DNA from: Candidatus Poribacteria bacterium
GTDB lineage: Bacteria; Poribacteria; WGA-4E; GCA-2687025
Reading direction: 5' to 3'
Length of the DNA: 64,000 nt
NCBI GenBank assembly: GCA_963665845.2
Contig: OY762492.1
Location: 128,001 to 192,000, forward strand
The notes under the pieces are model-generated. The model worked only from the letters and a program-made list of their open reading frames with translations. It was not told where the DNA came from and did no database searches. This document shows, in pieces, positions 18,134 to 35,878 of this stretch. A program made the translations under genes and the position numbers. The first letter of the stretch is position 1. Every line of letters starts with the position of its first letter.

Positions 18134-18167
18134 CGGCCCGCCGATCCAGACCGTCATTCCCGCGTAA
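18075..18167 (+). pseudogene. Possible truncated remnant of a downstream gene (30 aa) ending inside a REP
   Basis: GAGGA RBS at about 18060, then MAFSSEQRQYLQAMIFILRDGPPIQTVIPA*; the stop lies in the REP at 18153-18176. Confidence 0.3.
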
Positions 18168-18263
18168 GCGGGAATCCAGAGGCGAACGCATAACGTCCCG
18201 CGTTCGGCTGTTATGCCCGCGTCCGCGGAAACCCCCCCAGCCCCCCTTTTCAAGGGGGGAATC
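18153..18263 (+). repeat. REP hairpin plus family-2 hairpin between convergent genes
   Basis: GTCATTCCCGCGTAAGCGGGAATC and CCCCCCCAGCCCCCCTTTTCAAGGGGGGAATC. Confidence 0.9.
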
Positions 18264-18283
18264 GGACGCGGCGGCGCGTCGGA

Positions 18284-19369
18284 TTACCGCGCGGACTTTT
18301 CCCTGTTGCACGATTTACAAAGCATCTGGCAATTCTCTTCGTCGGTCTTGCCGCCTTCTGACCATGGCGTTTTATGGTCGGCTTCCATCGCTTTGATTTC
18401 AAATTTCTCCTTACAGACGGGGCAAACGCCGGACTGCTTTTCGTACACCTTTTGCTTCGTCTTGTCTGGAAAGGCGCGTATGTTCAGATGTTTCTCATCG
18501 CCCGTCAGAATGTACGGGTAGATGCCCGCGTCCCGGGTCACCTCATCGTCGTCTACAAGTCGGGCGGTTTCCGCCTCGATCTCATCAGGGTCAAGGTCGG
18601 CGTCTTTAAAATCGCGGTGCAGCGTACCCCAATCTACGCCCCGCATCATTTTTGGTCTTGTGTTCGTGAACGTGGATTTGACCCACTCGATCACCGATTG
18701 AAAATACTCCCATAGGGGCAGCGCGTTTTCTTTCTGCTGATGCGTCCCCATGTAGTCCTCAATCGCGTCTTCGCTGATCCACCTGATCGCTGTCTCCAAG
18801 TACTCTTGTCGGTTTGCCCTACCGCTGACATAATCCTTGCCGATTTGGTATGCTGGGCCAAGATGCCGACTAAAATACCGCTTGGCGTCGGACAACCATG
18901 ATCCAGCGTAGACGGCGTTGCGCAATTCTTGATTCGTCAACTTCAGTCCCGCAATGTTGATCGTCTTGAACCAGTCCAACTTCTCGCTGTCGGTCCCAGT
19001 GCAAACGTAGACCATCAACTTGTAATTCTCGACCAACGCTTTCTCGTCGGATTGGAGATTGTCAAAATATTTGTAGTCGACCGAGAATTTGCCGCCCACA
19101 TACCGCGCAATGGAGATGGTGCGCTGCTGACCGTCAATGATCTCGAACGTGCCGTCTTCCCGAGCTGCCCAGTACATCACGTTCAACGGGAACCCTTTCA
19201 GGATCGAATCGATGACGGCGTTGCGCTCCTTCTCCTTGTAGATAAACTCCCGCTGAAACGGCGGACGGATGTCCAGTTTGCCGCTGTACCCGGTCACGCC
19301 ACCGTCGCCATCGTCCCTGTAATCCTTGACAAGCTCTTCCACCGTGATGTCCAACAACTCGATTTTCAT
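18284..19369 (-). CDS. DUF262 (GmrSD N-terminal-like) + HNH endonuclease
   Basis: RPPFQREF, IIDGQQR, FKTIN; C-terminal CPVC...EADH...GG...N...LCKSCN. Confidence 0.9.
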   Translation of the reverse strand: MKIELLDITVEELVKDYRDDGDGGVTGYSGKLDIRPPFQREFIYKEKERNAVIDSILKGFPLNVMYWAAREDGTFEIIDGQQRTISIARYVGGKFSVDYKYFDNLQSDEKALVENYKLMVYVCTGTDSEKLDWFKTINIAGLKLTNQELRNAVYAGSWLSDAKRYFSRHLGPAYQIGKDYVSGRANRQEYLETAIRWISEDAIEDYMGTHQQKENALPLWEYFQSVIEWVKSTFTNTRPKMMRGVDWGTLHRDFKDADLDPDEIEAETARLVDDDEVTRDAGIYPYILTGDEKHLNIRAFPDKTKQKVYEKQSGVCPVCKEKFEIKAMEADHKTPWSEGGKTDEENCQMLCKSCNREKSAR

Positions 19370-20358
19370 GGCTGCAGCCTCCTGTTGCGGATGACGATTC
19401 GCGCATAAAGCATTTTGCCGTTGATTTTAAATCTACTTGACTTGCCTGTTATCTGCTTTACGAGAGACGTATCCACATCGATAATTTCAAACTGTTCGGG
19501 ATTGTGCTTGTCCAAAAAGGTGATCGGCACGCCCATTTCTCCAGCATAGTCCGCTGGGATTTTAGCGACCCTGCCTACTTCGATGGCGTCATAGTTGTCG
19601 TAATTCGGGTATTCCTCCGGCGAATATCGTTTGAACAAAACCAGTTCTTCATTTCGCTTCTTGTGGCCTAGGTTGGTGAACCAACAAGCGTTTCCCAATC
19701 TGCCCTTGACGACGCCATCCACCCGTCGGTAGGCGCTGCCCTCCTTCTTGTTTTTAACCAATTCTCTCGCATAGGCTTCCGGCACATCAAAAAGCATATC
19801 TTTGCCAGCCGGACCATGACCAAGCCACAACTTGCCGCTTCTGATAAGGGGAAATACCTCCTTGTAAGTGATCGCGTTCATGCTTCCGATAACGACAAAT
19901 TTTTTGCCGTATTCGACCAGTTGCGCGACATACTCCCTGAACAATGAAAACGGCGGATTCGTAACGACGATGTCCGCCTGTTGAAGCAGATCAATGCATT
20001 CCTGGCTTCTAAAATCGCCGTCTTCTTCGAGTTGAAATTCGGCGGGTTCCGCTCCAATGCCGACATACTCAAGTCCGGCGGCAGTTTCCATGTCGTGATT
20101 GCTGAAGAGGTCTGTCTGCCGATTTTTGTAGCAGGTTGTGATCAGTCTTTTGAGTTCAAGTTGCTCGAACTTCAAATGAAAGTAGCGGAAGAAATTGCTG
20201 ACGGCGGGATCGTCGCAATTGCAGTAAACGGTTTTGCCGCGAAAATGTTCATCGTAATGCGTCAGCTCATTCTCGATGTCCGGGAGCTGCGTGTAAAATT
20301 CATCGTTCTTTGCCCTGTTCGCAGCGTGCAGAGCCTGATTTTTCGCCATAATACGCAT
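19366..20358 (-). CDS. Adenine-specific methyltransferase, EcoRI-methylase family
   Basis: KNDEFYT, VYCNCDDP, GDFRSQEC, VVTNPPFSLF, MGVPITFL; ATGA overlap with the nuclease. Confidence 0.9.
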   Translation of the reverse strand: MRIMAKNQALHAANRAKNDEFYTQLPDIENELTHYDEHFRGKTVYCNCDDPAVSNFFRYFHLKFEQLELKRLITTCYKNRQTDLFSNHDMETAAGLEYVGIGAEPAEFQLEEDGDFRSQECIDLLQQADIVVTNPPFSLFREYVAQLVEYGKKFVVIGSMNAITYKEVFPLIRSGKLWLGHGPAGKDMLFDVPEAYARELVKNKKEGSAYRRVDGVVKGRLGNACWFTNLGHKKRNEELVLFKRYSPEEYPNYDNYDAIEVGRVAKIPADYAGEMGVPITFLDKHNPEQFEIIDVDTSLVKQITGKSSRFKINGKMLYARIVIRNRRLQP

Positions 20359-20612: not shown

Positions 20613-23600
20613 TTACAGCCCAAGCGCCTCGCGCAAAAACTTGCCCGTGTAGGAGCTTTCCGCCGCGGCGATCTCTTCAGGCGAACCCTGCGCGACGATA
20701 TACCCGCCCGACTCGCCCCCTTCAGGACCAAGATCGATCACATGATCCGCCGCCGCGATGACCGACAGATGATGCTCAATCACAATCACCGCGCTGCCCT
20801 GGTCCACCAGCCGATGTATAACATTCAGCAGCTTGCGCACATCGTCATAATGCAGCCCTGTCGTCGGCTCGTCCATCAGATACGCCGTCCCCTGCGTTGA
20901 ACGGCGCGCCAGCTCTTTGGCGAGCTTCACCCGCTGCGCCTCCCCGCCGGACAGCGTCGGCGCCGGCTGCCCAAGCTGAACATAATCCAAACCGACATCC
21001 TTGAGCGTCTGCAGCCGCCGCCGTATTTGCGGGATGCTGTCAAAATGCGCCAGCGCATCGTTCACCGTCATTTGTAGAATTTCGGCGATGTTTTTGCCGC
21101 GGTACTGCACATCCAGCGTCTCTCGGTTGTAGCCTGTCCCTGCGCATGTCTCGCACTCGATCCACACATCCGGCAGAAACTGCATCTCAATGCGGTTATG
21201 CCCATGCCCATGGCACGATTCGCACTGCCCGATCGGGAGGTTGGAGCTGAAACGGCGGGCGTCGTAGCCGCGCGCCTGCGCCTCCGGCATTTCGGCAAAA
21301 ATCTTACGTATATCGGTGAACACATCCGTATAGGTGGCGGGGTTGGAACGCGGCGTTTCGCCGATCGGCTTCTGGTCTATGTTGATCACCTTGTCAAGCC
21401 GCTCAACGCCCAGCAGTTGATGGAACGGTCCAGGATCGCGCGACTGGACGCCTCCAAGCCGGCGGGCGAGCGCGGGGTACAACGTCTCTTGAACCAGCGA
21501 CGATTTGCCGGAACCGGAAACGCCCGTAACGCATGTGAGCGCGCCCAGCGGAAACGCCGCGTCAATGTTTTTTAGGTTGTTCAGTTTCGCGCCAGTGATG
21601 CGAATATATCCTCTCGGCGGCTGCCGCTGTCCGTTTCGGCGCGGGATAGCCTCTTTCCCTGACAGGTACAACCCTGTCAACGATGTTGGATTCTGCGTCA
21701 AATCGTCTGCGCCGCCTTCCGCCACGATCTCTCCGCCATGCCGCCCCGCTCTGGGACCGAAATCGAATACCCTGTCGGCGGAACGAATCGTCGCGTCGTC
21801 ATGTTCAACAACAATGACCGTGTTTCCAAGATCGCGCAGCCGCGCCAGCGCTTTCAGCAGCCGCTCATTGTCGCGCGGATGCAAGCCGATCGTCGGCTCA
21901 TCCAGCACATACAGCACGCCTGTCAAGCCCGACCCCAGCTGCGACGCGAGGCGAATGCGCTGCGCCTCCCCGCCGGAGAGGCCCGGCGCCGGGCGGTTCA
22001 ACGTCAGATACTCAAGCCCGACATCCACTAAAAACTGCAGCCGGTTGATCGTTTCGCTCAACAGCTCCTGCGCGATCTGCGCCTTCTGCCCTTCGAGCCG
22101 CAGGTCGCGGAAAAAACGCAGCGCCGCCTCGGTCGTCAGCTCGGTGACCTCCGTCATGTTCAGCCCCCCGATCTGCGCGCCCAGCGCAAACGGGTTCAGC
22201 CGCGAGCCTTTGCATGACGGGCAGACCACCTCGCGCACAAACGGGCGAACCTCCCGCGTCCGCGCGCCGCGTACATGGAGCCAGTCAACCGTCCCGACCG
22301 CGCCGCGGAATTGAACCTTGCCGCCGTCCATCTCATAAAGCTTGTCGGAACCGTAGAGCAGGATCTCCTGCGCCTCCAGCGGTATTTTTTCAAACGAAGT
22401 CGAGAGCGAGAACCCGTACTCTCGGCACAAGCTGGCGATGAAGCCCGCAAGCGGATTCCCCGGCAGCACAGGTCCCCATGCCAGAACCGCCCCGCCGCGC
22501 AGCGACTTTCGGGGGTTGGCGACAACCGCCTTCGCGTCCGCCCCTGTGACCCGCCCGATGCCCTCGCATCGATCGCAGCGCCCAAGCGGGCTGTTGAACG
22601 AAAAATGCTGCGGCGTCAGCGGCTCAAAACTAAGCCCGCACGGCGCGCACGCAAAATGTTCAGAGTAGGTCTCCGACAAACGCCGAGTCTCCTCAACCCC
22701 CTCCTCGTTCAAAACGCGGCAGCTTCCTTCGATGCGCATGACGCCTTTGCCCTGCTCCAGAGCCGTTTCAACCGCTTCGGCGAGGCGCGACTTTTCCGAC
22801 TCGCGCAAGATTAGCCTGTCGATCACGATGCCGGCGTCATGGCGTATGCGCCTGTCCAGCTCCATGTTTTCAACGATGTCGACCGTCTCTCCGTTCACCC
22901 ATGCGCGTATGAATCCGTCTTTTGCGGCGCGTTGAAAAACCTCGCTGTATTCTTCCCCGCGCGCCAGCTGTATCGGAGCCAGAATGTTCAGACGGCTCTC
23001 CGCCGGGAGCGTCATGATGTTGTCGACGATCTGCTGCGAGGTTTGCGTCCCGACAGGAGAGCCGCATTCTGTGCAGTGCGCCGTCCCCGCCCGCGCAAAC
23101 AGCACTCGCAGATAATCGTAGATCTCCGTCACCGTTCCGACGGTTGAGCGCGGGCTTTTGCTCGGCGCTTTTTGGTCGATGGCAATCGCCGGCGACAGAC
23201 CCTCGATGCTCTCCACATGCGGCTTGTCGACGCGCCCTAAAAATTGCCGCGCATACGCCGAAAGCGACTCCACATAACGCCGCTGCCCCTCGGCGTAGAT
23301 CGTGTCCAGCGCCAGCGACGTCTTCCCCGACCCTGAAACCCCTGTGAACGCGACCATCTGCCGCATCGGAATATCGACATCGATGTTTTTCAGGTTATGC
23401 TCGGCGGCGCCGCGCACCTTGATTTCGCGCAATGGTTCCGGCCGCTCTGACGGCGCCGCCTCCTCCTTCTCCGCCTCCTTGACGGAGGACCGCTTCTGAA
23501 GAGCCGCTTTCAAAAAACGCCCCGTTTCGGTCAGATTCTCGGCGGAGGCGATCTCTTCGGGCGTCCCGGCGGCGAGAAGATAACCGCCCTCCTCCCCGCC

Positions 23601-26345
23601 TTCAGGACCGAGGTCGATAATATGGTCAGCCGTCTTCACCACCTCCATATTATGCTCAATGACGACGACCGCGTTGCCCCGATCCACGAACGCATGCAGC
23701 GCCTCCAGCAGTTTGCGCACATCCTCAAAATGAAGCCCTGTCGTCGGCTCGTCCAAGATATACAGCGTATGTCCGGTTGAGGCGCGGCTCAGCTCCTTGG
23801 CGAGCTTGACGCGCTGCGCCTCGCCGCCGGAGAGCGTCGGCGCCGGCTGACCTAACTTGATATAGTCCAGCCCAACATCCAGCAGCCCTTGCAGCTTCCG
23901 CGCGATCTTCGGCAGACCGCCAAAATGCGCCATCGCTTCGTTCACATCCATATTCAAAATGTCGGCGATATGCTTGCCTTTGAAATCGATGCTCAGCGTT
24001 TCGTCGTTGAAACGGGAGCCGTTGCACACCTCGCATTTGATCCAGACATCCGCCATCAGCTGCATCTCGATCTTTTTATACCCGTACCCTTGGCACGCTT
24101 CGCACCGCCCGCCTTTGACGTTGAAGCTGAACCTGCCAGGTTTGTATCCGCGCACCTGCGATTCAGGCAGCTGGGCGTATAAGGCGCGAATCGCGTCCCA
24201 CACTTTGACATAGGTTGCGGGGTTGGAGCGCGGCGTCCTGCCGATGGGCGACTGGTTGATGCAGATCATTTTGTCGACATCGTCCATCCCTTCGACATCG
24301 TCATGGTCGCCTGGGCGCTCGTCGGCGCGCATGAGATCGCGCGACAGACGCTTCGCCAGAATATCGTTCACCAGCGACGACTTGCCCGACCCGCTGACGC
24401 CCGTGACGCATGTGAACGCGCCGAGAGGAATTGCCGCATCGATATTTTTCAGATTGTTATGCCGCGCGCCTTTGACCTTGAGCCAGCTGCCGTTCGGCGT
24501 CCGCCGCGTTTCAGGAACCGGTATCTCCTTTTTCCCTGAAAGATATTGACCCGTGATGGAATCGGGGCTTTGCATGAGGCGCGAAGGCGAACCCGCCGCC
24601 ACCAGCTCTCCGCCCTGAACGCCTGCTCCAGGACCGAAATCGACCAGATAATCCGACTCCAGCATCGTCTCTTCGTCATGCTCAACGATGATGATCGTGT
24701 TGCCGATGTCGCGCAGCTGCTTGAGCGTATTGAGAAGTTTGAGATTGTCGCGCGCATGGAGGCCGATGCTCGGCTCGTCCAGCACATACAGCGCGCCGAC
24801 CAGACCCGCCCCAATCTGGCTCGCCAGTCGTATTCGCTGCGATTCGCCGCCCGACAGCGTCGGCGCCGTTCGGTTCAGCGCCAGATAATGCAGCCCGACA
24901 TTTTTTAAAAACCAGAGACGCGCGCGGATCTCCTTCAACACCTGCTCGCCAATCTGCAGCTGCCGCGGCGTCAGCTCTAGGTTGTCAAAAAACGCCTGCG
25001 CCTCGCCGACCGGCATCGCGGCAATGTCAAAAATCGTTTTTCCGTTGATAAGCGCCGCGGACGCTTCCCGCCGAAGCCGCCGCCCGTCGCATTCCGCGCA
25101 TGTCTGTACCTCCATGAACTTCATGAGCCATTTGCGGACATTTTCGGAATGCGTGTTGTTGAACCGCCGGTTCACGTTGTTGAGCAGCCCTTCAAAACGC
25201 CATCTCCGCTGTCTCGCCTCGCCGTTGCGGTAGACGGTGACAGGAAGCCGCCTTCTTCCAATTCCGTTTAAAACGGCGTTCTGGGCGCGCTTCGAGAGCG
25301 TCTCCCATGGCTCGTCCAGCGAAAAGCCGATATACTCCGCCAGCCCCTCCGCCGTCGGGTGATGATCCTTCAATTCGCCCCAAGGCGCGACCGCCCCTTC
25401 GCGTATCGACAACGAGGCGTCCTTGATCATTCGGTCCGCCGACGCCTGCGTCGCGCTTCCGATGCCGTTGCAGGTCGGGCATGCCCCCTTCGGGCTGTTG
25501 AAGGAGAACATCTGCGGCGACGGCTCCTCATAGCTGACGCCGCACTCGGCGCAGGCGTAAAGCTGGCTGAACATGATCTCTTCGCCGTCAACGATGTCGG
25601 CGATCATGATTCCGCCCGCCAGCTGAAGCGCGCTCTCCACCGAGTCGGAAAGCCGCTCCCGTATATCCTCTTTGACGACGATGCGGTCGATGACGATTTC
25701 GATGTTGTGGCGCAGGTTCTTGTCCAGCTGAACGGCGTTCGTCAGTTCGTAAATTTCCCCGTCGATGCGGGCGCGGGCGTAACCGGCGCGGAGGGCGTCC
25801 TCCAGCTCCTCTTTGTGTTCGCCTTTTCTCCCCTGCGCGACGGGCGCGAGTATCTGCAGCCGCGTACCTGTTTCCAGGTTGAGCAGCTTGTTGACGATCT
25901 CCTCTCGGCTCTGCGCGCCGACCTCGCCGCCGCATTCCAGGCATGTCATGGAGCCGACGCGCGCATACAACAGCCGAAGGTAGTCGTAGATCTCGGTGAT
26001 CGTGGCGACCGTGGAGCGCGGGTTGTAGCCAGTCGATTTCTGATCAATGGAGATGGTCGGCGACAAGCCGCCGATGAAGTCAACCGCCGGCTTTTCCATC
26101 TGACCTAGAAACTGCCGGGCGTAGGCGGAGAGCGATTCAATATACCGGCGGCGCCCTTCGGCGTAAAGCGTGTCGAAGGCGAGCGAGGATTTGCCGGATC
26201 CGCTCACGCCGGTGAAACAGATCAGCTGGTTTTTGGGAAGGTCAAGGTCAATGTTGCGCAGATTGTGTTCGCGGGCGCCCCGCACGGTGATCAGTTCGAG
26301 TTGACTATTTTTTGGGCGTTCGTTCGATTGCATGCCGTGTTCCAC
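20613..26345 (-). CDS. uvrA: Excinuclease ABC subunit A, double-length (two fused UvrA units)
   Basis: Four Walker A motifs ([10 protein letters not shown]), four LSGGE signatures, repeated CxxC zinc fingers, YAEG(R/Q)RRY(I/V)[12 protein letters not shown] twice. Start GTG 26345 or ATG 26333. Confidence 0.96.
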
Positions 26346-26530
26346 ACGCCTTAGAGGGTGAGACGATTCCTGTTTGCCATATTATATCGTATCATGGGGC
26401 GTCAGACGGCTGCGTCAAGCAATATGTGAACGCAAATCGGGCGCGCCATCCCCGTGATGGATACGTTTATGCGGGCGCGTCCGTTTCATGAAACGCGGAC
26501 CGAACGCCCATACGGCCCTATTCGCGGCGC

Positions 26531-26626
26531 CGCGTCCGATTCCCCCTTGAAAAGGGGCTAGGGGGGTTTAAAGGACGGGCGCCGCGACTGCGATGCCTTA
26601 AGATTCCCGCTTACGCGGGAATGACG
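26531..26626. repeat. Composite family-2 hairpin + REP element
   Basis: Near-identical to 11378-11474; related inverted copy at 49225-49314. Confidence 0.9.
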
Positions 26627-26678
26627 ACCAGCGGCGCAGCGCTTTAGAGTCAAAAATGAAAATCCCCGCATGGGCGAA

Positions 26679-27350
26679 CTATCCTCTCGTCCACCGCTTC
26701 ACCTGCCAGCCCTCCCGCCGCGCCAAAGAGAGCAGCCCCCGCGACGGATTCACCGCTGTCGGATTGCCGACCAGACGCAGCAGCTCCGCGTCCGCCATGC
26801 TGTCGCCGTAGGCGTAACTTGCCGACAAATCGATCTCCCGTTCCGCCGCGAACGCGCGCGCCGCGTCCGCCTTCGCTTCCCCGCTCAACGGCGGAGTCGT
26901 CAGCTCGCCTGTAAAAAGCCCCTCCGACGCCTCCAGCTGAACCGCCATCACCCCAGACGCGCCCAGCAGACGTCCCAGCGGCGCGGCGATCATCTCCGCA
27001 GTCCCCGTCACCAGAGCCGTCTCATGCCCCTGCGACGCATGACGCTCAAACGTCTCTTTCGCTTTAGGAAACATTTTCGGCAGCGCATACGACTCCGCCG
27101 TCTCCTCCATCAGACGAAAAAGCCGCTCCGCCTCCATCCCTTTGTAAAAGCGGTAAAACATGCGGTTGAACGCCGCGCGGCTAAAAGCGTCAACGGCTAA
27201 GAGGACGGGGATCCAGGGAGCGAAGCGAATCTTCCACCAAGCGCGCTGACGCCGAGACATCCCCGCCGTCGAAAGATGCGCATAAAAATGTACGATGGTC
27301 GAGTCGAGAAGCGTTCCGTCAATGTCAAAAAATGCGGCAGGCTTGCTCAT
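26679..27350 (-). CDS. HAD-IB family phosphatase
   Basis: FFDIDGTL, LVTG, YAYGDSMAD, AVNP; ATGA-coupled to the upstream gene. Confidence 0.9.
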   Translation of the reverse strand: MSKPAAFFDIDGTLLDSTIVHFYAHLSTAGMSRRQRAWWKIRFAPWIPVLLAVDAFSRAAFNRMFYRFYKGMEAERLFRLMEETAESYALPKMFPKAKETFERHASQGHETALVTGTAEMIAAPLGRLLGASGVMAVQLEASEGLFTGELTTPPLSGEAKADAARAFAAEREIDLSASYAYGDSMADAELLRLVGNPTAVNPSRGLLSLARREGWQVKRWTRG

Positions 27351-29908
27351 ACGCCTCCAAGCTCTCTCACCGCCCGCTCCACTCGGTCTGCGATCTCTCG
27401 ATAGAGACGAAAATTCGGCTCGGAATCGGCGCGCTCCTGATAGGGCGACATCAAAATCGGCTCCCCAAAACGGGTCTGAACCGGCGCCGGTATCGGAAAG
27501 GCGCGCCCTACCGGCATCGCCTGCCGCGTCCCCGAAATATACGCCGGCACAATCGCGGCGCCCAGCTCCAGCGCCAAAAGCCCCAGACCAGGTTTGAACG
27601 GCTGAAGGCTCCCGTCCCGCGACCGCGTGCCTTCAGGAAAAATCAGCAGCGACCGACCGCGGTTCAGAGCCTCCCGCGACAGCTGCAAACTGCGCAAAAA
27701 GTTGCCGCGCCGATCAAACGGAAGAACGTTCAAAAGCGTGTTGACCGCCCATCCTTTAGCGTATGAATCAAAAAAGTAATCCTTCGCCCCAAGCACATGA
27801 AAACGCGACGCCGACCGCCCCAAAGCCGAAAGCAACGCGGGGCTGTCCAAATGACTGGAATGGTTCGCCGCGACGATACAGGGCGATTCGGTCAGCAGCC
27901 GATCCGCCCCTTCCGTTTTCAAACGAAACGCCGTCTTGAAAACCAGGCGAGTCGTCCAACGAAAACTGCGCCCAACAACCTTCTGAAGCGGCGAATAGTC
28001 CAAATACTGCATCTCCGCTTCAAGCGACGCCGATTCGTCAGACTGAAGCGCATCGCCCTGCGGAATCCGCTTCTCAACATACGGCTCCAAAAAATCGACC
28101 GCGTCCTGAACCGTCTGAAAACGAAGCGCAATCTGTTCTGGAATCGAGACGTTGAAACGCTTCTCCACCGCCGCCAGCATCTCCACCTTCATGAGCGAAT
28201 CGAGCTGCAGATCCTTGTCAAGGTCGTCGCTCAACTGCACCGATCCGGCGTCCGCGCCCGATATGAGCGCCATCTCATTCGCCAGCTCCCGCTTCCAGCC
28301 CTCCTCTATCGGCTCGCCCGCTTCGGCGCGGGGCGCCTCAACCGTCTGCTTCCCCCCGCCTTCCAGAATCCACTCCCGCACGGCGTCCCGCCGCAGACGC
28401 ATGGCGCTCGTCTTCGGCAGCTCCTCAACCCGAAAATGAGTCCTCTGAAGACGCTGATAAGACGGAATCGCCGCCCCCCGCTCCTGTATCGCCGCCTGTA
28501 GTTCCGCCATCTTCTCCATGTCGTTCAGAACGACCGACGCGACCGTGAAGACGCCGTGGACCTCCTCCCGCTGCTGCCGGCTCTTGACGCCGATGACGCA
28601 CATCTCGCGCACATACGGCAGGTTTTTGTAAATCAGCTCCACCTCGTCCGGGTACACATTTTTGCCGGCGCTGGTGACGATCATGTCCTTGAGGCGCCCC
28701 GTCAGGTAAAGGTACCGATCCTCGTCCAGACGCCCTAGATCGCCTGTTCGGAGCCATCCGCCGCGCAGCTTCTCCTCGCTTGCTGTCGCGTTGTTTAAGT
28801 ACCCTTGCATCACATTCGGACCGCGCGCGATCACCTCGCCGATTTCGTCGTCCCCCGGCGCGTCGATCTGAATCTCCACCTCCGGCACGGCGACGCCGAC
28901 GCTCGCTTTTTTCGTCTTACGGTACGGATTCACCGTCAACACGGGCGACGCCTCCGTCAACCCGTAACCCTCATGAATCGGCATGTCCGCGCTCAAAAAC
29001 AGATCGTACGCGTCATGATCAAGAGCCGAACCGCCGCACACCAGAACGCGGACGCTGTCGCCAAACAGCTTTCGCAATTCGCTTTCCGGCGATTCGTTCG
29101 ACTCGGCGGCGCGTCGGCGCGCCATGTCCGCGCACATCTGAAACAGCCGCGGGATGCCGAGCATGACGGTCGCGCCCACTTCGTTCAACATCGCCAGTAT
29201 CTTGCGCGGGTTGAACGTGCCGGCATAGGTTACCGACGCGCCCGCGGTGATCGGTCCCAAAAGCCCGTTCGTGAACTCAAAACCGGCGTTCAACGGCAAG
29301 GTGGATAAAAACTCGTCTGTCGGAAACGGATGCAGGAGGCGCGAGACGCTCCCGACATTCGCCAGCAGATTTGAATGCGACAGCATGGCGGCGCGCGGTT
29401 CAATCGTCGTCCCGGCGATGAAGATGATTGATGCGACGGCGTCCGGCTCTCCGCGGTCGATTTCCTCCCCAGGCGCGTCCGGCAGCGCGTTGAATGTCCA
29501 TACAGGCTCTTCGCCGTCCGCCTCGTCCAAACCTTTTTTGAGATGCGGCGCGAGGCTGTCTGACGCGATGAAACACCGCGCCTCCGCAAAATCGCGTATC
29601 GCCAGCGCCTCGTCCATGCGCGTTTGCGGATCCAGCGGAATGACGCTCATGCCGGCGGCGGCGCACCCGAAATAGGCGACCGCCCATTCGGGGCAACTTT
29701 CCCCCAACAGAATCGCCCGACTCCCCCTGTCGAATCCCCGCTCCGCCAGATGCCGCGCGAATCCCTGCGACCTGCGAGCCGCCTCCCCGTAGGAAAGCTC
29801 ATCCCACACATTCTGCCGCTTCATACGAAAAGCGGTTTTGTCGTCAAACTGCTCCGCCGTCTGAAGCAGCAGCCGCGTCAACGTTATTTCGGAGAAATCT
29901 AAGTCCAT
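27347..29908 (-). CDS. Multidomain adenylation (acyl-CoA synthetase-like) - acyl carrier - PlsC-type acyltransferase
   Basis: GYGLTE, GPNVMQGY, TGDLG, GKNVYP; carrier LQLDSL; acyltransferase ANHSSHLD and FPEGTRS. Confidence 0.92.
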   Translation of the reverse strand: MDLDFSEITLTRLLLQTAEQFDDKTAFRMKRQNVWDELSYGEAARRSQGFARHLAERGFDRGSRAILLGESCPEWAVAYFGCAAAGMSVIPLDPQTRMDEALAIRDFAEARCFIASDSLAPHLKKGLDEADGEEPVWTFNALPDAPGEEIDRGEPDAVASIIFIAGTTIEPRAAMLSHSNLLANVGSVSRLLHPFPTDEFLSTLPLNAGFEFTNGLLGPITAGASVTYAGTFNPRKILAMLNEVGATVMLGIPRLFQMCADMARRRAAESNESPESELRKLFGDSVRVLVCGGSALDHDAYDLFLSADMPIHEGYGLTEASPVLTVNPYRKTKKASVGVAVPEVEIQIDAPGDDEIGEVIARGPNVMQGYLNNATASEEKLRGGWLRTGDLGRLDEDRYLYLTGRLKDMIVTSAGKNVYPDEVELIYKNLPYVREMCVIGVKSRQQREEVHGVFTVASVVLNDMEKMAELQAAIQERGAAIPSYQRLQRTHFRVEELPKTSAMRLRRDAVREWILEGGGKQTVEAPRAEAGEPIEEGWKRELANEMALISGADAGSVQLSDDLDKDLQLDSLMKVEMLAAVEKRFNVSIPEQIALRFQTVQDAVDFLEPYVEKRIPQGDALQSDESASLEAEMQYLDYSPLQKVVGRSFRWTTRLVFKTAFRLKTEGADRLLTESPCIVAANHSSHLDSPALLSALGRSASRFHVLGAKDYFFDSYAKGWAVNTLLNVLPFDRRGNFLRSLQLSREALNRGRSLLIFPEGTRSRDGSLQPFKPGLGLLALELGAAIVPAYISGTRQAMPVGRAFPIPAPVQTRFGEPILMSPYQERADSEPNFRLYREIADRVERAVRELGGV

Positions 29909-31443
29909 GATTCGGAACCCTCCGACATAGGACGATCCACATGCTCAGCGTCATCCGAGATTTTCAATACGTTGCGTTTCAGCCCCGGTATATGCGCCTC
30001 CATCAGATAAGCGCGCCAGTCGATCTTCGAGACGTCAAAACCCCACCGCTGCCGCTCCTCGTCGGTTTGACGCTCCATCATCGCGCGCGTTTTGGATGTG
30101 TCGAACAGATACCGATTCTGAATATACGGTCCGTAAATCTCCGTGTAGTACAGCAGGCGTTCCCCCGCGTTGCGAAGAAGACTCAGGCGCTGCCGACGGC
30201 GCCGCATCCGTTTTGACGGAACCGCGGACAGCAGCTTGTCCACAATGCCGAGCAGTTTCAGTTTACGCCGCAACTGCGCCTGATACGCCTCTATCGGCGG
30301 AAAAGTGAACTCTGGAACCGCCACAGGCGACCCAGACTTGTCGGTCATCGGCCACTGGAGAAAATAGTCGCGCGTGTATTGGTACAGGTTACGGTATGAT
30401 AGCGGGTTTTCGGCGCCGCTGGCGACATGGTAATGCCGCATCCCGCCCTTTTCCGCCGTCTCAACAACCGCGGTGAGCGTCGCGTTGACAACATAATCGA
30501 CCGGTATCAGATCTGCAGTGACCTCTGGGTTGAGCGGAAAATCGGGCAGGCGCCCCTTTCCAAACGCCGCGATGATCGGATCCGCCATCCGAAACCCGTC
30601 GATCCAGCCAGGGTCAGGTTCCCGCAGGCTGCTTTCGATGATCGACGGACGCACAATCAGAACGGGCAGATCGCCGCGCGACAGCTCCGTTACCCGCTCG
30701 CCGAGAGCTTTTGTGTAGGCGTAAGTGTCGCTCCATCCGCGTTCGCGCGCCCTGTCCATGCCGGCTTTGACAAGCGCGGTTCGCCGTTCCTTCTCGTCGG
30801 CGTATTCCCCCTCTTCGCATGCCCGTTTGAGCGTTTCGATCTCTTTGTCGACATCATGCGGCAGAACAGGACCGGTCCATCCGTCGGGCTTGTCTTTCTC
30901 GGTCGGCAGGGCGGCTTCTGGGGCGGCGTTCGGGTTTCCGGCGTTCACATAGGCGGTGGAGATATGCGCCAGAACGGCGCCGCCGCACTCTTGAGCAAAC
31001 TGAACGATGCGCCTCGGCGCCTCCGCGTTCATCTCCAAAGCCTCGTCCAACGGCGAATCGAAGACGACGACCGCCGCGCTGTTGACGACGATCTGAACCT
31101 CCGCGGCGAGAGCGTCGTACACCTCGTCTGACATGCCGAGTTTCGGCAGGCCGATGTCGCCGTTGACCGCCTTCACCTTCTCCCGTACGCGCGCGTCAAA
31201 GTCGGCGCCCCATTCTTCGCGCAGCCTGTCGAAGACCCCTATCGGCAGCATCTCCTGTTCAAACCGCTCCTGAGCAGTCATGGTACGTCCGCGCGCGTCG
31301 GTCTTTTCGCGTATGAGAACATAGACGCGGCGTATATCGGGCGCGGCGCGCAGCAGTTTTTCTACCAGCGGTTTTCCCAAAAAGCCGGTGGCTCCTACAA
31401 TGAGAGCGGTTTTTCCGGCGTAGAAACCTTGAACACGATCCAT
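29899..31443 (-). CDS. Alcohol-forming fatty acyl-CoA/ACP reductase (male-sterility family)
   Basis: GATGFLGK, NSAAVVVFD, HISTAYV, YAYTKALGE, RPSIIES, DLIPVD, FDVSKIDW. Confidence 0.92.
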   Translation of the reverse strand: MDRVQGFYAGKTALIVGATGFLGKPLVEKLLRAAPDIRRVYVLIREKTDARGRTMTAQERFEQEMLPIGVFDRLREEWGADFDARVREKVKAVNGDIGLPKLGMSDEVYDALAAEVQIVVNSAAVVVFDSPLDEALEMNAEAPRRIVQFAQECGGAVLAHISTAYVNAGNPNAAPEAALPTEKDKPDGWTGPVLPHDVDKEIETLKRACEEGEYADEKERRTALVKAGMDRARERGWSDTYAYTKALGERVTELSRGDLPVLIVRPSIIESSLREPDPGWIDGFRMADPIIAAFGKGRLPDFPLNPEVTADLIPVDYVVNATLTAVVETAEKGGMRHYHVASGAENPLSYRNLYQYTRDYFLQWPMTDKSGSPVAVPEFTFPPIEAYQAQLRRKLKLLGIVDKLLSAVPSKRMRRRRQRLSLLRNAGERLLYYTEIYGPYIQNRYLFDTSKTRAMMERQTDEERQRWGFDVSKIDWRAYLMEAHIPGLKRNVLKISDDAEHVDRPMSEGSESWT

Positions 31444-31524
31444 TGGACGACGCCTTTCTTTGCTGCGCCTGTTTCTCGCATGGAATCATATCATGCCATG
31501 CTTCGTTTCTAAGCGCAAGCAATG

Positions 31525-31730
31525 CGCGCCGCCGGTCGTCATTCCCGTGAAAACGGGAATCTTAGGCGTCGCAGACGCCGTCCATATCGCGTCTCCGATC
31601 AACATCATCGTATGAGCGTACTGCCATGCCGCGCCGCCGGCCGTCATTCCCGTGAAAACGGGAATCTTAGGCGTCGGAGACGCCGTCCATATCGCGTCTC
31701 CGATCAACATCATCGTATGAGCGTACTACC
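31525..31730 (+). repeat. Tandem duplication, 105-bp period, each unit with a REP variant
   Basis: ATTCCCGTGAAAACGGGAAT at 31541 and 31646 with near-identical flanks. Confidence 0.95.
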
Positions 31731-31740
31731 GCGCCGCCCG

Positions 31741-31807: not shown

Positions 31808-32755
31808 ATGAATGTCCTCATCACCGGCGGCTTCGGATGCATCGGCAGCTACGCCGCCCGCGATCTGTTGAACGCCGGCGATCATGTCGTCATTTACGAT
31901 ATGGCAGACGATCGGTCCATACCGCGCATGGCGATGCCGATTGAACAGGCGGAGGCGCTTGTTTTTGAGCCAGGGGACATAACCGACCTGCCGGCGCTTC
32001 TGCGCGTTGTCAAGAATCATCGAATCGACCGCATCGTTCATCTCGCCTCATGGCAGGTGCCAGCCTGTCAAGCAAACCCGCCGAAAGCGCTGCGCGTCGT
32101 CTCCGAAGGCACCATCAACGTCTTTGAAGCGGCGCGTCTCTATGAACTGCCGCGCGTCGTCTGGGCAAGCAGCGTCGCTGTCTTTGGCTCCCCCGACGAC
32201 TACGGCGGAAAAGCGGTACAAAACGACGACCCGCACTACCCCAAATTTATCTACGGCGCGAACAAGTCGCTCTGTGAACGGTACGCCGTCCATTATGTGA
32301 ACGAGTACGGCTGCGACATCATCGGTCTGCGCTTCACCAGCGTTTACGGCGTTGGGCGCACACGCGGCATGAGCTCCTTCACCACCAAAATGATTGAGGC
32401 GGCGGCGTACGACGAGCCGTACACCGCCCCGTTCGGCGACGACATTGTGGACTGGCAGTATGTGGAGGATGTGTCGGCGGCGGTCTGCGTCGCGCTGACA
32501 GCGCCCGCGCCAAAAACGCGCAACTTCACCGTCAAGGGCGATTACCGCTCCGTCAAGGAGGGGGTGGAGCATCTGCGGTCGCTGGTTCCGTCGGCGCGGC
32601 TGGATGTGGAACCTGGACTCTTCGGCATTCAGTGGGAATACGACGCTTCCGCGCTGGAGAAAGAGCTTGGCTTCACCCCGCAATACAGTATGGAGCGCGG
32701 CATTGAGCGAACCTTAGAACGTTTTAGAGAGCTGAAACCGCTCCTTCGACCTTAA
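31808..32755 (+). CDS. NAD-dependent epimerase/dehydratase (extended SDR)
   Basis: TGGFGCIG, ASSVAVFG, YGANK, LRFTSVYG. Confidence 0.92.
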   Translation: MNVLITGGFGCIGSYAARDLLNAGDHVVIYDMADDRSIPRMAMPIEQAEALVFEPGDITDLPALLRVVKNHRIDRIVHLASWQVPACQANPPKALRVVSEGTINVFEAARLYELPRVVWASSVAVFGSPDDYGGKAVQNDDPHYPKFIYGANKSLCERYAVHYVNEYGCDIIGLRFTSVYGVGRTRGMSSFTTKMIEAAAYDEPYTAPFGDDIVDWQYVEDVSAAVCVALTAPAPKTRNFTVKGDYRSVKEGVEHLRSLVPSARLDVEPGLFGIQWEYDASALEKELGFTPQYSMERGIERTLERFRELKPLLRP

Positions 32756-32781
32756 CCGAAACCCGAACAGAAAGCGGCGTC

Positions 32782-34329
32782 ATGGCGCAACATCCAAACT
32801 TCCTTTTCATTTTCAGCGACGAACACAGCTTCCGTTTCATGGGGCATCGGTCAGAAGAAGACGGCGGAGAGAAGGTGGACACGCCCAACTTCGACCGCCT
32901 CGCCGCTCAAGGTACCGTCTTTACGGACGCCTACTGCCAGATGCCGCTCTGCACCCCCTCCCGTTTGAGCATGCTGACGGGGCGCGAAGTCCGCGGCGCG
33001 GGCGCATGGGGCAACGGCAGCGTCATGAAGCCGGATGTTCCGACGATGGCGGGCGTTCTCGGCGGCGCGGGGTATGAAACATGCCTCCTCGGCAAGATGC
33101 ATCTCGGCGGCAGCCGTCAGTTTGCCGGCTTCAACCATCGCCCGTACGGCGACCTGACCGGCAGAACGGGGCATCAGCGCGACCCGATCCAAGGCGGAGG
33201 CGGCGGCATGCGCTCGCGCACAACTTATTCGGTCGGCGTGACGGAGATACCCGAAAGCCTGTTTCAAGAGCAGGTTTCCGCCCAAGAATCGATCGCGTTT
33301 CTGCGCGAGCATGAAGCGTCCAACCCTGACCAGCCATGGTTTTTGATGGCAAGTTTGAGCCGCCCGCATTTTCCGTTGACGGCGCCGCGCCGATGGGTTG
33401 AGCGTTATCCGCCGGACGCGATCTCCGAACCGAAGGTCGGGCGGACAGGCGACGCCTACGACCATCCGATGAGCGTCGGCATGCGCAAAGGTTTCCAAGC
33501 GGACGCGATTGAACATGACGAGATGATGCGCGCGAGAGGCTCCTACTTCGCCTGCGTCAGCTATCTGGACGAACTGCTGGGCGACATGTTCATACGGCTC
33601 GAAGCGACTGGGCAGCTTGACAATACGATCATCATTTACACGACCGACCATGGCGAGATGGCGGGCGAACATGGCGTCTGGTGGAAAAACAGCTGGCATG
33701 AAGCGAGCGCGCGCGTCCCGCTCATCATTTCAACGCCGGAGCAGCGCCGAGGCGAACAGCCTGCGCAAGAGATCCGAACGCCCGCCGCGCTGACGGATCT
33801 GTTCCCGACGATGTGCGGACTTGCAGGCGTTTCGGCGCCTGAAGGGCTGGACGGGGTCGACCTGTCCGACGTTGTGAACGGCAGCGGCGGCGCGCCCGAC
33901 CGCCCCGTTTTCACCGACGCGCTGGCGGGGCGATGGGGTCCTGGGACCGAGTTTCGCATGGTAAGGCAGGGAAAATGGAAATATGTGCATTTCAGAAACG
34001 CCCCGGCGCTTTTCTTTAACCTCGAAAACGACCCGCATGAGCAGCGCAACCTGATCGCGCGCGGATGCGAAGGCGGGGACGCCGAGGCGCTGCGCCGACT
34101 CAAGCGGACGGCGGAGGAGACGATGGACTTTGACGCCGCGGCGGAAGAACGCAAACGCGACCAGCGGCTGAAACAGCAATTCCCGCTCAAAACGCCCGGC
34201 AGCCAAGGCAACCTGTACACGCTGCCAAACGGCAAGATCGTGAACGCCGACGACGCGCTTTACAACCCGACCGTCATCGTTGAGGACGCCGTCGAAGCGT
34301 ACAGCGACCATCCCGCGCGGAACGAGTGA
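32782..34329 (+). CDS. Cys-type formylglycine sulfatase (choline-sulfatase-like)
   Basis: PNFLFIFSDEH, LCTPSR, GKMH, PHFP, TDHGEM. Confidence 0.93.
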   Translation: MAQHPNFLFIFSDEHSFRFMGHRSEEDGGEKVDTPNFDRLAAQGTVFTDAYCQMPLCTPSRLSMLTGREVRGAGAWGNGSVMKPDVPTMAGVLGGAGYETCLLGKMHLGGSRQFAGFNHRPYGDLTGRTGHQRDPIQGGGGGMRSRTTYSVGVTEIPESLFQEQVSAQESIAFLREHEASNPDQPWFLMASLSRPHFPLTAPRRWVERYPPDAISEPKVGRTGDAYDHPMSVGMRKGFQADAIEHDEMMRARGSYFACVSYLDELLGDMFIRLEATGQLDNTIIIYTTDHGEMAGEHGVWWKNSWHEASARVPLIISTPEQRRGEQPAQEIRTPAALTDLFPTMCGLAGVSAPEGLDGVDLSDVVNGSGGAPDRPVFTDALAGRWGPGTEFRMVRQGKWKYVHFRNAPALFFNLENDPHEQRNLIARGCEGGDAEALRRLKRTAEETMDFDAAAEERKRDQRLKQQFPLKTPGSQGNLYTLPNGKIVNADDALYNPTVIVEDAVEAYSDHPARNE

Positions 34330-34336
34330 GAAGCGC

Positions 34337-35878
34337 ATGCGTTCACAACCGAACATCCTGTTCATTTTGAGCGACGAGCATAACTTTCGGTTCATGGGGC
34401 ATGTGAGCCGGGCGGACGGCGGCGAAAATGTGGAAACGCCCGCCCTAGACCGCCTCGCCGCGCAGGGGACGGTCTACACGGACGCCTACTGCCAGATGCC
34501 GCTTTGCACTCCGTCTCGTTTGAGCATGCTGACAGGGATGGAGGCGCGCGCGGCGGGCGCTTGGTCAAACCAAAGCGTTATGAAGCCTGGGCTGCCGACG
34601 CTGCCGGGCGTCTTTGCGGAGGCGGGGTATGAAACATGCCTTGTCGGGAAAATGCATCTGGGCGGCAACCGCCAATTCGTCGGCTTTCGACACCGACCCT
34701 ACGGCGATTTAACCGGCAGATCGATAGCGCAGCGCGACCCGCTGGACGGGGATGTAGGCCTCCGCGGTCGGACAACCAGCTCCGTCGGCGTCACGCAGGT
34801 TCCAGAGAGCTTGATTCAAGATCAAGCGATCGCGCAGGAGACGGTCGCCTTTGCGCGCGAGCATGAAGCGGCGAACCCAGAGCAGCCTTGGTTCCTTATG
34901 GCGAGCGTCATCCGCCCCCATTTTCCGTTGACGGCGCCGCGCCGATGGATTGAGCGTTACCGCCCCGATGCCGTCTCCGAGCCGAAGGTCGGGCGGACGG
35001 GCGACGCCTACGACCACCCGATGAGCGCCGCCATGCGCAAGGGGTTCCGCGCGGACGAGATCGACCATGACGAAATGATGCGGGCGCGCGCCGCCTATTT
35101 TGCCTCCGTCAGCTATCTGGACGAGCTGCTAAACGACATGCTTCTGCGGCTTGAGTTCACCGGACAGCTGGAAAATACGATCATCGTCTACACGAGCGAC
35201 CATGGGGAAATGGCGGGCGAACATGGGCTTTGGTGGAAAAACTGCTGGCATGAAGCGAGCGCGCGCGTTCCGCTGATCATCTCCACGCCAGAGCAGCGGC
35301 GAGGCGAACTGCCGGCGCGCGAAGTAAAAACGCCTGTCGCGCTGACGGATGCGTTCCCGACGCTGTGCGCTATGGCGGGAATCTCGGCGCCGAGCGGACT
35401 GGACGGCGTCGATTTGACGCAGGGCGCGCCCGACCGCCCGATCTTTACAGACGCGCTCGGAGGGCGATGGGGTCCAGGGCGGCGTTTCCGCGCGGTCAGG
35501 CAGGGGCGGTGGAAATACATACGTTTTCATGACGCGCCGCCGCTTTTCTTTAACTTAGAAAACGATCCGATGGAGCAGCGCAACCTGATCGAACGCGGCT
35601 GCGAAGGCGAGGACGCGGAGGCGCTGCGCCGACTCAAGCGGACGGCGGAGGAGACGATGGACTTCGACGCCGCGGCGGAAGACCGCAAGCGCGATCAGCA
35701 GCTCGTCCAAACCTACGCCCTGAACGCGCGCCCCAGCCAGAAAAACCTGTACCTGATGCGGTCAGGCAAGGTGGTGAACGCGAACGATCCGCTCTATCAG
35801 CCGACCGTCATCGCCGAAAACGGCGCCGACATCTTTACCGATCATCCTGCGTATGAGAGCGAATCTGAAAAGAATTAA
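34337..35878 (+). CDS. Cys-type sulfatase, tandem paralogue
   Basis: Start ATG 34337 (MRSQPNILFILSDEH); LCTPSR, GKMH, SDHGEM. Confidence 0.93.
   Translation: MRSQPNILFILSDEHNFRFMGHVSRADGGENVETPALDRLAAQGTVYTDAYCQMPLCTPSRLSMLTGMEARAAGAWSNQSVMKPGLPTLPGVFAEAGYETCLVGKMHLGGNRQFVGFRHRPYGDLTGRSIAQRDPLDGDVGLRGRTTSSVGVTQVPESLIQDQAIAQETVAFAREHEAANPEQPWFLMASVIRPHFPLTAPRRWIERYRPDAVSEPKVGRTGDAYDHPMSAAMRKGFRADEIDHDEMMRARAAYFASVSYLDELLNDMLLRLEFTGQLENTIIVYTSDHGEMAGEHGLWWKNCWHEASARVPLIISTPEQRRGELPAREVKTPVALTDAFPTLCAMAGISAPSGLDGVDLTQGAPDRPIFTDALGGRWGPGRRFRAVRQGRWKYIRFHDAPPLFFNLENDPMEQRNLIERGCEGEDAEALRRLKRTAEETMDFDAAAEDRKRDQQLVQTYALNARPSQKNLYLMRSGKVVNANDPLYQPTVIAENGADIFTDHPAYESESEKN

Follow-up and report, generated by a model that had tools for sequence, protein, structure and literature searches.

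A split elbD operon in a Poribacteria genome and unlinked ElbC, a lactate-racemase-family protein, as candidate ether-bond-forming enzyme

The window analysed here is a stretch of 64,000 nucleotides from a Candidatus Poribacteria genome (contig OY762492.1, positions 128,001 to 192,000 of the forward strand). Between positions 26,679 and 31,443 of the window, the minus strand carries three overlapping genes, an elbD split in two and an elbB homologue, relatives of the ether lipid genes of Myxococcus xanthus. Judged from their predicted functions, these three genes could by themselves supply a fatty alcohol and an acylated triose; making the ether bond is beyond them. We propose, with a probability of roughly 0.6, that the split elbD and elbB make the two precursors of an alkyl ether lipid and that ElbC, encoded elsewhere in the genome, takes the part of the flavin enzyme AGPS in linking them. 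As a gene set, the three belong to a cluster type already described and come as no surprise; their interest lies in what comparison with other genomes exposes.

An ether step independent of AGPS exists, because M. xanthus requires ElbD for its ether lipids while loss of its AGPS has a minor effect (PMC9131029). ElbC is the likely enzyme for this step because ElbC and AGPS replace each other across elbD genomes, in opposite directions in six tree pairs. When 136 elbD-type genomes were searched for both proteins, 63 had ElbC only, 72 had AGPS only, one had both and none had neither, with kin among them that are not independent:

Source class: ElbC only 35, AGPS only 0, both 0, neither 0
Acidobacteriota: ElbC only 21, AGPS only 10, both 1, neither 0
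Latescibacterota: ElbC only 5, AGPS only 59, both 0, neither 0
Planctomycetota (5 of 17 tested for AGPS): ElbC only 2, AGPS only 3, both 0, neither 0

Within the source class, ElbC was found in 35/35 genomes with a full elbD and in 0/6 without. The AGPS search returned no full-length match in any of the 41 class genomes (there were three partial, GlcD-like matches), and the same query finds AGPS in other phyla. The source genome, G000, has no AGPS, its FAD oxidase being GlcD-like. Among 201 genomes of the Acidobacteriota (the phylum of locus L025), 32 have an elbD fused to its fatty acyl reductase (FAR) part and 22 have elbC, all of them among those 32; these counts include one unpublished genome, G095, without which 32, 22 and the 21 with ElbC only become 31, 21 and 20, and the overall total becomes 135. 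At two of the ten elbC-less loci, an FAD oxidase matching solved AGPS (E 3e-148 for L171) is encoded beside elbD, and with the elbD-neighbouring FAD oxidase as query we detected AGPS in 10/10 elbC-less elbD genomes compared with 1/22 that have elbC; ten further genomes, which lack elbD, gave weak matches of 26-30%. The elbD query matched 64 of 141 Latescibacterota genomes (the phylum of L061), 41 of the matches being full or nearly full, four partial and 19 to the FAR part only. Five of these 64 have elbC without AGPS and the other 59 have AGPS without elbC, and two more genomes have elbC with neither an elbD match nor AGPS. In the Planctomycetota, elbD is present in 17/221 genomes and elbC in 14 of these 17; as predicted ahead of the AGPS search, all three elbC-less elbD genomes have an AGPS, which there is of a different type (that of Dictyostelium), and two controls with elbC have none. 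For the Myxococcota, where the search covered elbD and elbC, all 56 elbD genomes among 121 have elbC. Seven elbD-less controls of the Planctomycetota and Myxococcota do not. Some Latescibacterota, L197 (G358) among them, have a free-standing FAR gene beside those for a short-chain reductase and AGPS.

On the ElbD tree, the ElbC/AGPS state changes at least seven times, and in each of six independent pairs, taken on well-supported branches, the two proteins go in opposite directions (p 0.031). The HAD phosphatase gene is beside 0/16 AGPS-type elbD loci (one of them cut by a contig end). At most ElbC-type loci, though not at all of them, it adjoins elbD or elbC. These distributions bear on the alternative that the operon serves to produce fatty alcohols and wax esters, or some other neutral lipid without an ether bond, the alcohol being acylated by the acyltransferase. 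A FAR and an acyltransferase would suffice for this on paper, ether-lipid synthesis in Poribacteria is stated to be without any record (bioRxiv 10.64898/2026.06.23.733905), and ether lipids were not detected in Pontiella, which has ElbD homologues (PMC11868695). However, 136/136 elbD-type genomes tested carry ElbC or a true AGPS, either of which would be superfluous for wax esters; many of these genomes use the true AGPS, whose gene is a few kb away from elbD at L163 and L171 and from a FAR gene at L197. We consider a wax-ester product improbable. A search for PF03007 (WS/DGAT wax synthase) gave no match in G000, and control genomes were equally silent.

In G000, elbC (C1:2223784-2225385) is located ~2 Mb from the operon, is intact, and encodes a protein 72% identical to an operon-linked copy. 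This protein scores 786 bits against NF052592 (LarAH14/15/16; cut-off 740), placing it in the LarA (lactate racemase) family, and is predicted to use a nickel-pincer cofactor. It keeps D85, H128, K204 and H220, which correspond to D72, H108, K184 and H200 of LarA, does not have the His174 loop, and in predicted structure matches 9Q3K with a TM-score of 0.75. The gene at the elbC position in loci labelled Myxococcota and Acidobacteriota likewise carries a lactate-racemase N-domain. In M. xanthus, elbA to elbE are MXAN_1531 to MXAN_1527, so elbC is MXAN_1529 (PMC13012113), which the dataset of PMC7583248 lists in LarAH group 15. ElbC shares its fold, the cofactor-anchoring lysine, the nickel histidine and the missing His174 with LarAH14/15/16 (NF052592; PMC7583248) and with the one-histidine proteins LarA_Sp and LarA_Bw (9Q2U, 9Q3K, 9Q3J; PMC12611868), but has a deletion where LarA_Sp has an asparagine loop (PMC12611868). 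Neither 'lipid' nor 'ether' occurs anywhere in the main text of PMC7583248, although Table S1 of that paper gives acyltransferase, HAD, reductase and acyl-CoA synthetase neighbours, and lipids are not mentioned in the accessible text of PMC11770544 and PMC13524815.

In five genomes of the source family, elbC is just downstream of the split operon. In G000 it forms a one-strand run (C1:2220192-2225385, L137) with a YegS/DAGK kinase gene, cstA and larE, and this run is apparently the detached operon tail. Four relatives keep the genes for FAR, the adenylation-carrier-acyltransferase protein, HAD, a zinc dehydrogenase, ElbC and the kinase together. Both larC and larE are present in G000. A second HAD-IB gene, whose product is 31% identical to the operon HAD protein, lies ~3 kb from larC (region C1:3249898-3254895).

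The operon itself has the following features, all on the minus strand:

29899..31443, minus: FAR, 514 aa, the detached N-terminal half of ElbD (PF07993 and PF03015)
29918..29923, minus: GGAGGG, a Shine-Dalgarno-like site for the second gene within the end of the FAR gene (read from the sequence)
27347..29908, minus: adenylation-carrier-acyltransferase protein, 853 aa, the C-terminal half of ElbD (Pfam, tree and L185 alignment)
28406..29863, minus: adenylation (ANL) domain, residues 16-501, with A5, A7 and A8 motifs intact (Pfam and motif alignment)
29393..29419, minus: altered phosphate-binding loop (A3), I164-R172, replacing TSGTTGxPK (consensus from PMC10510592)
28397..28399, minus: R504 where the catalytic A10 lysine is expected, with no lysine within two residues (alignment)
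28088..28288, minus: acyl carrier domain, with phosphopantetheine serine S571 at 28196-28198 (PF00550)
27533..27922, minus: PlsC-type acyltransferase domain with HxxxxD and FPEG (PF01553)
26679..27350, minus: HAD-IB phosphatase, 223 aa, ElbB homologue, translationally coupled through ATGA (TIGR01490)

A preliminary description, made from the sequence alone, had listed three overlapping co-directional genes for FAR, an adenylation-carrier-acyltransferase protein and HAD, and the open reading frames and family matches bear this out; the altered A3 loop and R504 had escaped that description. The FAR protein matches PF07993 (E 3e-67) and PF03015 (E 5e-10), and its best match in the PDB is 7EOZ, 'Fatty acyl-CoA reductase' (E 9e-89). 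The 853-aa protein contains PF00501, PF13193, PF00550 and PF01553, in that order, and its predicted structure (mean pLDDT 84) has the ANL fold. The third product scores 138.8 bits against the HAD-IB model TIGR01490 (cut-off 98.3). The first two genes share 10 nt in different frames, GGAGGG standing 9 nt before the second ATG, and the second and third overlap by the 4 nt of ATGA. Conserved motifs include DSL of the carrier (S571), HxxxxD and FPEG of the acyltransferase, YxxxK of FAR and DxD of HAD, and each gene is single-copy in G000. A UvrA-like gene on one side and a divergent epimerase gene on the other limit the unit to three genes; a promoter scan gave no site on the FAR strand immediately ahead of the FAR gene.

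For comparison with M. xanthus ElbD we used a Myxococcus-like proxy, locus L185, in which the gene order is HAD, ElbC, ElbD, ElbE and the elbC start agrees with the MXAN_1529 row of PMC7583248. The FAR protein aligns end to end with residues 43-574 of the L185 ElbD (30% identity) and the 853-aa protein with residues 593-1471 (33%), such that the ElbD set of FAR, adenylation, carrier and acyltransferase domains is complete, and in order, across the two genes. In a quick tree of adenylation-carrier-acyltransferase sequences, the window protein falls among 57 FAR-bearing rows, apart from seven FAR-less rows (SH-aLRT 100); a tree of the adenylation domain only left the link between the window ElbD clade and the myxobacterial clade unsettled. 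The elbB (HAD) gene is adjacent, and the unlinked ElbC is 45-48% identical to myxobacterial-type ElbC. These data sustain the earlier proposal that the operon represents the same pathway with the reductase split off, and they also speak against ordinary Aas-like fatty-acid salvage and lysophospholipid re-acylation with a FAR gene as chance neighbour. Salvage would account for adenylation and PlsC domains in one chain and for weak matches to Aas models; however, these matches reach 136-182 bits where the cut-offs are 886-1349, the tree places the protein with FAR-fused ElbD, and FAR is fused in 27/27 other class genomes with a full match. Such a salvage role appears largely refuted already by the tree and the fusions, and we regard it as very improbable.

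The adenylation domain has diverged at two motifs, A3 and A10, that are both described as needed for adenylation (PMC10510592). The A3 loop reads IAGTTIEPR where (S/T)(S/T)G(S/T)TGxPK is expected, and its TSG is present in 3/35 class rows versus 53/54 rows of standalone ligases. The A10 lysine is at its column in 4/35 class rows (6/35 within two positions) versus 51/55 standalone ligases. The carrier serine, the acyltransferase His and Asp, and the A5 and A7 residues are kept in 35/35 class rows. We predict from these residues that adenylation by the 853-aa protein is weak or lost and that acyl groups come from elsewhere, although R504 may retain some activity. The position of the lysine alone is no proof, because the Myxococcus-like proxy has a shifted lysine. 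G000 also carries a canonical ligase (C1:1559625-1560854). A coupled loss of A3 and A10 was not supported (four independent pairs, median p 1), so we claim none. In the L185 ElbD (residues 1114-1126) the A10 lysine is shifted by two positions, as in the standalone ligases L090, L097 and L099, and a column count misses such variants. The hinge arginine of A8 is a histidine in 17/35 class rows (class family f8, 17 genomes), a further erosion of this domain. The inactive first A domain of PyrG, a non-adenylating ANL enzyme, likewise has the ANL fold without the A3 residues and catalytic lysine (PMC10510592), and PtmA2 is reported in a review to carry out the second half-reaction only; unlike these systems, the window operon has no partner adenylating domain. 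In vitro, the ElbD of M. xanthus acts as an acyl-CoA synthetase (PMC9131029), in contrast to what the altered motifs of the window protein would suggest.

In the pathway that we propose, a fatty acyl chain would be loaded on the carrier serine, where the attachment motif is seen, and the donor would probably be acyl-CoA or acyl-ACP (ACP, acyl carrier protein) made elsewhere, because the adenylation domain is without its catalytic lysine. The free-standing FAR would convert acyl-thioester to fatty alcohol, as expected for its family, and the acyltransferase would acylate dihydroxyacetone phosphate (DHAP), a probable acceptor given that in close relatives the same ElbD is paired with AGPS, an enzyme that requires acyl-DHAP. 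The HAD enzyme would then strip the phosphate, a step that we assign to it because it co-occurs with ElbC rather than AGPS. ElbC would, by its distribution, exchange the acyl group for the fatty alcohol, and we speculate on an elimination-addition reaction in which the nickel-pincer cofactor briefly takes up hydride or electrons. If the reaction followed enediol chemistry, a free terminal hydroxyl would explain why a phosphatase is required. A reductase would yield 1-O-alkylglycerol (ElbE or the zinc dehydrogenase in relatives; no candidate was found in G000), which the YegS/DAGK-type kinase beside elbC would re-phosphorylate for ordinary phospholipid synthesis. The products would be alkyl, not vinyl, ethers; PF10520 (CarF/PEDS1) has no match in G000, with the control equally silent. 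We hold tentatively, and with somewhat less than even confidence, a fuller version of this proposal, in which nickel-pincer ElbC would be a non-homologous replacement of AGPS, the first enzyme of the lactate-racemase superfamily to act on lipids and the first to form a C-O bond, would use a substrate dephosphorylated by ElbB, and would be fed in Poribacteria by an ElbD whose non-activating adenylation domain serves acyl transfer or as a scaffold.

Alternatively, the operon could belong to the Elb pathway while ElbC carries out a neighbouring step, such as oxidising or epimerising the glycerol backbone or processing the fatty aldehyde, with the ether bond made elsewhere, for example through reductive aldehyde etherification that involves FAR and a partner reductase. 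Characterised LarA-family enzymes are all hydride-transfer racemases or epimerases, and in M. xanthus it was the i15:0 aldehyde, not the alcohol, that tracked elbD (PMC9131029). Moreover, HAD, the dehydrogenase and ElbC come and go together, and AGPS could therefore be replaced by any one of the three. Yet G000 has ElbC with neither AGPS nor a clear dehydrogenase orthologue, and the reductase slot varies (ElbE, zinc dehydrogenase, short-chain reductase) whereas ElbC is present in 63/63 AGPS-less elbD genomes tested. ElbC is also without the second of the histidines on which racemisation depends, and seven racemase assays showed no activity of LarAH14 (PMC7583248). We consider a neighbouring step unlikely, if by no means negligible.

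Several observations weigh against ElbC as the ether-forming replacement of AGPS. The pair test was made on a quick tree of 44 rows that leaves out G168 and the Myxococcota, and G168, the sole such elbD genome tested, has both ElbC and a strong AGPS (G168:C7:6810-8504). The two proteins also coexist in M. xanthus (PMC9131029), and coexistence is probably common in the Myxococcota, given that ElbD occurs in 121 and AGPS homologues in 120 of 347 Myxococcota metagenome-assembled genomes (PMC11868695). AGPS is present in 107/141 Latescibacterota, 48 of them without an elbD match, and 19 of the 64 elbD matches there cover the FAR part only, which together suggests a further reduced ether pathway in that phylum. 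Because larC is present in 5/5 AGPS-type genomes and in all 10 ElbC-type genomes tested, the cofactor genes are compatible with a need for nickel but are no evidence of it, and a second, ordinary LarA gene in G000 (L138:5566-6894) could explain larC and larE. Isolated ElbD gave no FAR or acyltransferase product in vitro (PMC9131029). No orthologue of ElbE or the zinc dehydrogenase was found in G000, which is 90% complete (best matches 24-35%; for ElbE or ElbA, 27-35% and partial). The missing ether-lipid record of Poribacteria and the negative result for Pontiella count here as well.

The split of elbD is no assembly error, as each of two runs (possibly source samples) yielded one contig of 4,947 nt that spans 26608-31554 without differences. 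The full adenylation-carrier-acyltransferase match is present in 35/41 class genomes. Among these, elbD is split in 8/8 genomes of the source family (the source and 7/7 others) and fused in the other 27/27, with open frames of 1,417-1,505 aa. Since the split proteins form one clade in our trees, a single fission in the family ancestor would be the simplest reading. The HAD gene is directly downstream in 34/35 class genomes with a full match, in line with the conserved synteny that the earlier proposal called for; each of its refuting conditions that could be checked here came out in its favour. The earlier suggestion of a Poribacteria-like organism agrees with proteins labelled Candidatus Poribacteria at NCBI that are 99.9-100% identical to genes of family members G004, G006 and G007.

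A locus with a split gene, a distant elbC, a defunct adenylation domain and no reductase could also be one in decay. The degenerate A3 and A10 motifs, the long branch to the genus and the failure to find a reductase orthologue would fit such decay, but none of the three frames is broken, their identity to the sister species is 88-91%, the carrier and acyltransferase residues are invariant in 35/35 class rows, and elbC is intact with 72% identity to the linked copy. Contigs from two RNA libraries, which represent relatives 5-15% divergent and not transcription of the source locus, cover all three genes and add a weak hint of the same kind. Decay is, in our judgement, a very poor explanation.

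Clusters resembling elb were reported earlier (PMC9426513), and the text of that paper's supplement contains nothing on A-domain residues. For sponge Poribacteria, elb-like clusters have been reported in which elbD is split between the reductase and adenylation domains, some with elbD and elbB only, and the same work cites split forms in soil Acidobacteria (bioRxiv 10.64898/2026.06.23.733905). The split-elbD clusters of gene cluster families 6 and 8 have the same split point as the window operon, elbB as the only other core gene and the same phylum, and the published Poribacteria clusters likewise appear without elbE. The three-gene arrangement is thus already in print for Poribacteria, and because of this we assign the window operon to the described cluster type. 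The text of that preprint does not mention an unlinked elbC, the LarA family, AGPS exclusion or lysine loss, although its Table S4 may show the last.

Compared with elbA-E of M. xanthus (MXAN_1531-1527; MIBiG BGC0000871), the window operon has the same four domains in the same order, with HAD (ElbB) and ElbC orthologues common to both. It differs in that ElbD is encoded by two genes and belongs to a different clade, HAD is downstream, elbC is ~2 Mb off, and G000 has no orthologue of elbA or elbE, no AGPS and no CarF match. The route of animals and protists through FAR, GNPAT (FARAT) and AGPS, also represented by MXAN_1675-1676, follows the same logic of a fatty alcohol and an acylated triose, acyl-to-alkyl exchange and reduction, whereas G000 is without AGPS, has an ElbD with a tethered carrier and adds a phosphatase. 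In the literature outside subscription papers, we found nothing linking an ether lipid with lactate racemase and nothing on MXAN_1529, and one review calls elbC unknown; ElbC as the ether-bond enzyme appears to be a candidate so far unpublished.

The ether-bond-forming enzyme of the Elb pathway is unassigned in the literature (PMC9131029), and the near-perfect swap of ElbC and AGPS names one gene for it. This step matters for myxobacterial signalling lipids, for sponge alkylglycerols and for the Acidobacteriota ether lipids that serve as climate proxies. If ElbC does form the bond, the orphan LarAH14/15/16 enzymes would gain a substrate class and ether-lipid synthesis would be nickel-dependent. 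Genome surveys would do well to score elbD matches jointly with elbC or AGPS, and a natural two-piece ElbD may express more easily than the 1,470-residue protein.

Upstream of the operon, the window holds a divergent, plus-strand NAD-dependent epimerase gene (PF01370) and two sulfatase-like genes (31808-35878), the epimerase not being among the best matches of ElbE queries. A 105-nt tandem duplication (31525-31734) precedes the operon and a palindromic repeat (~26530-26660) follows it; pieces of the two give 600 and 1,126 blastn matches in the genome, as of a REP-like family. Directly downstream, here and in the sister species, is a gene for a 1,910-aa double-length UvrA-like protein (20613-26345, minus strand), named by reading the sequence. 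Beyond it, a lower-GC stretch (16463-20358) contains, also by reading, two DNA-methylase-like open reading frames and one of 361 aa with a C-terminal HNH-like motif, possibly a restriction-modification system.

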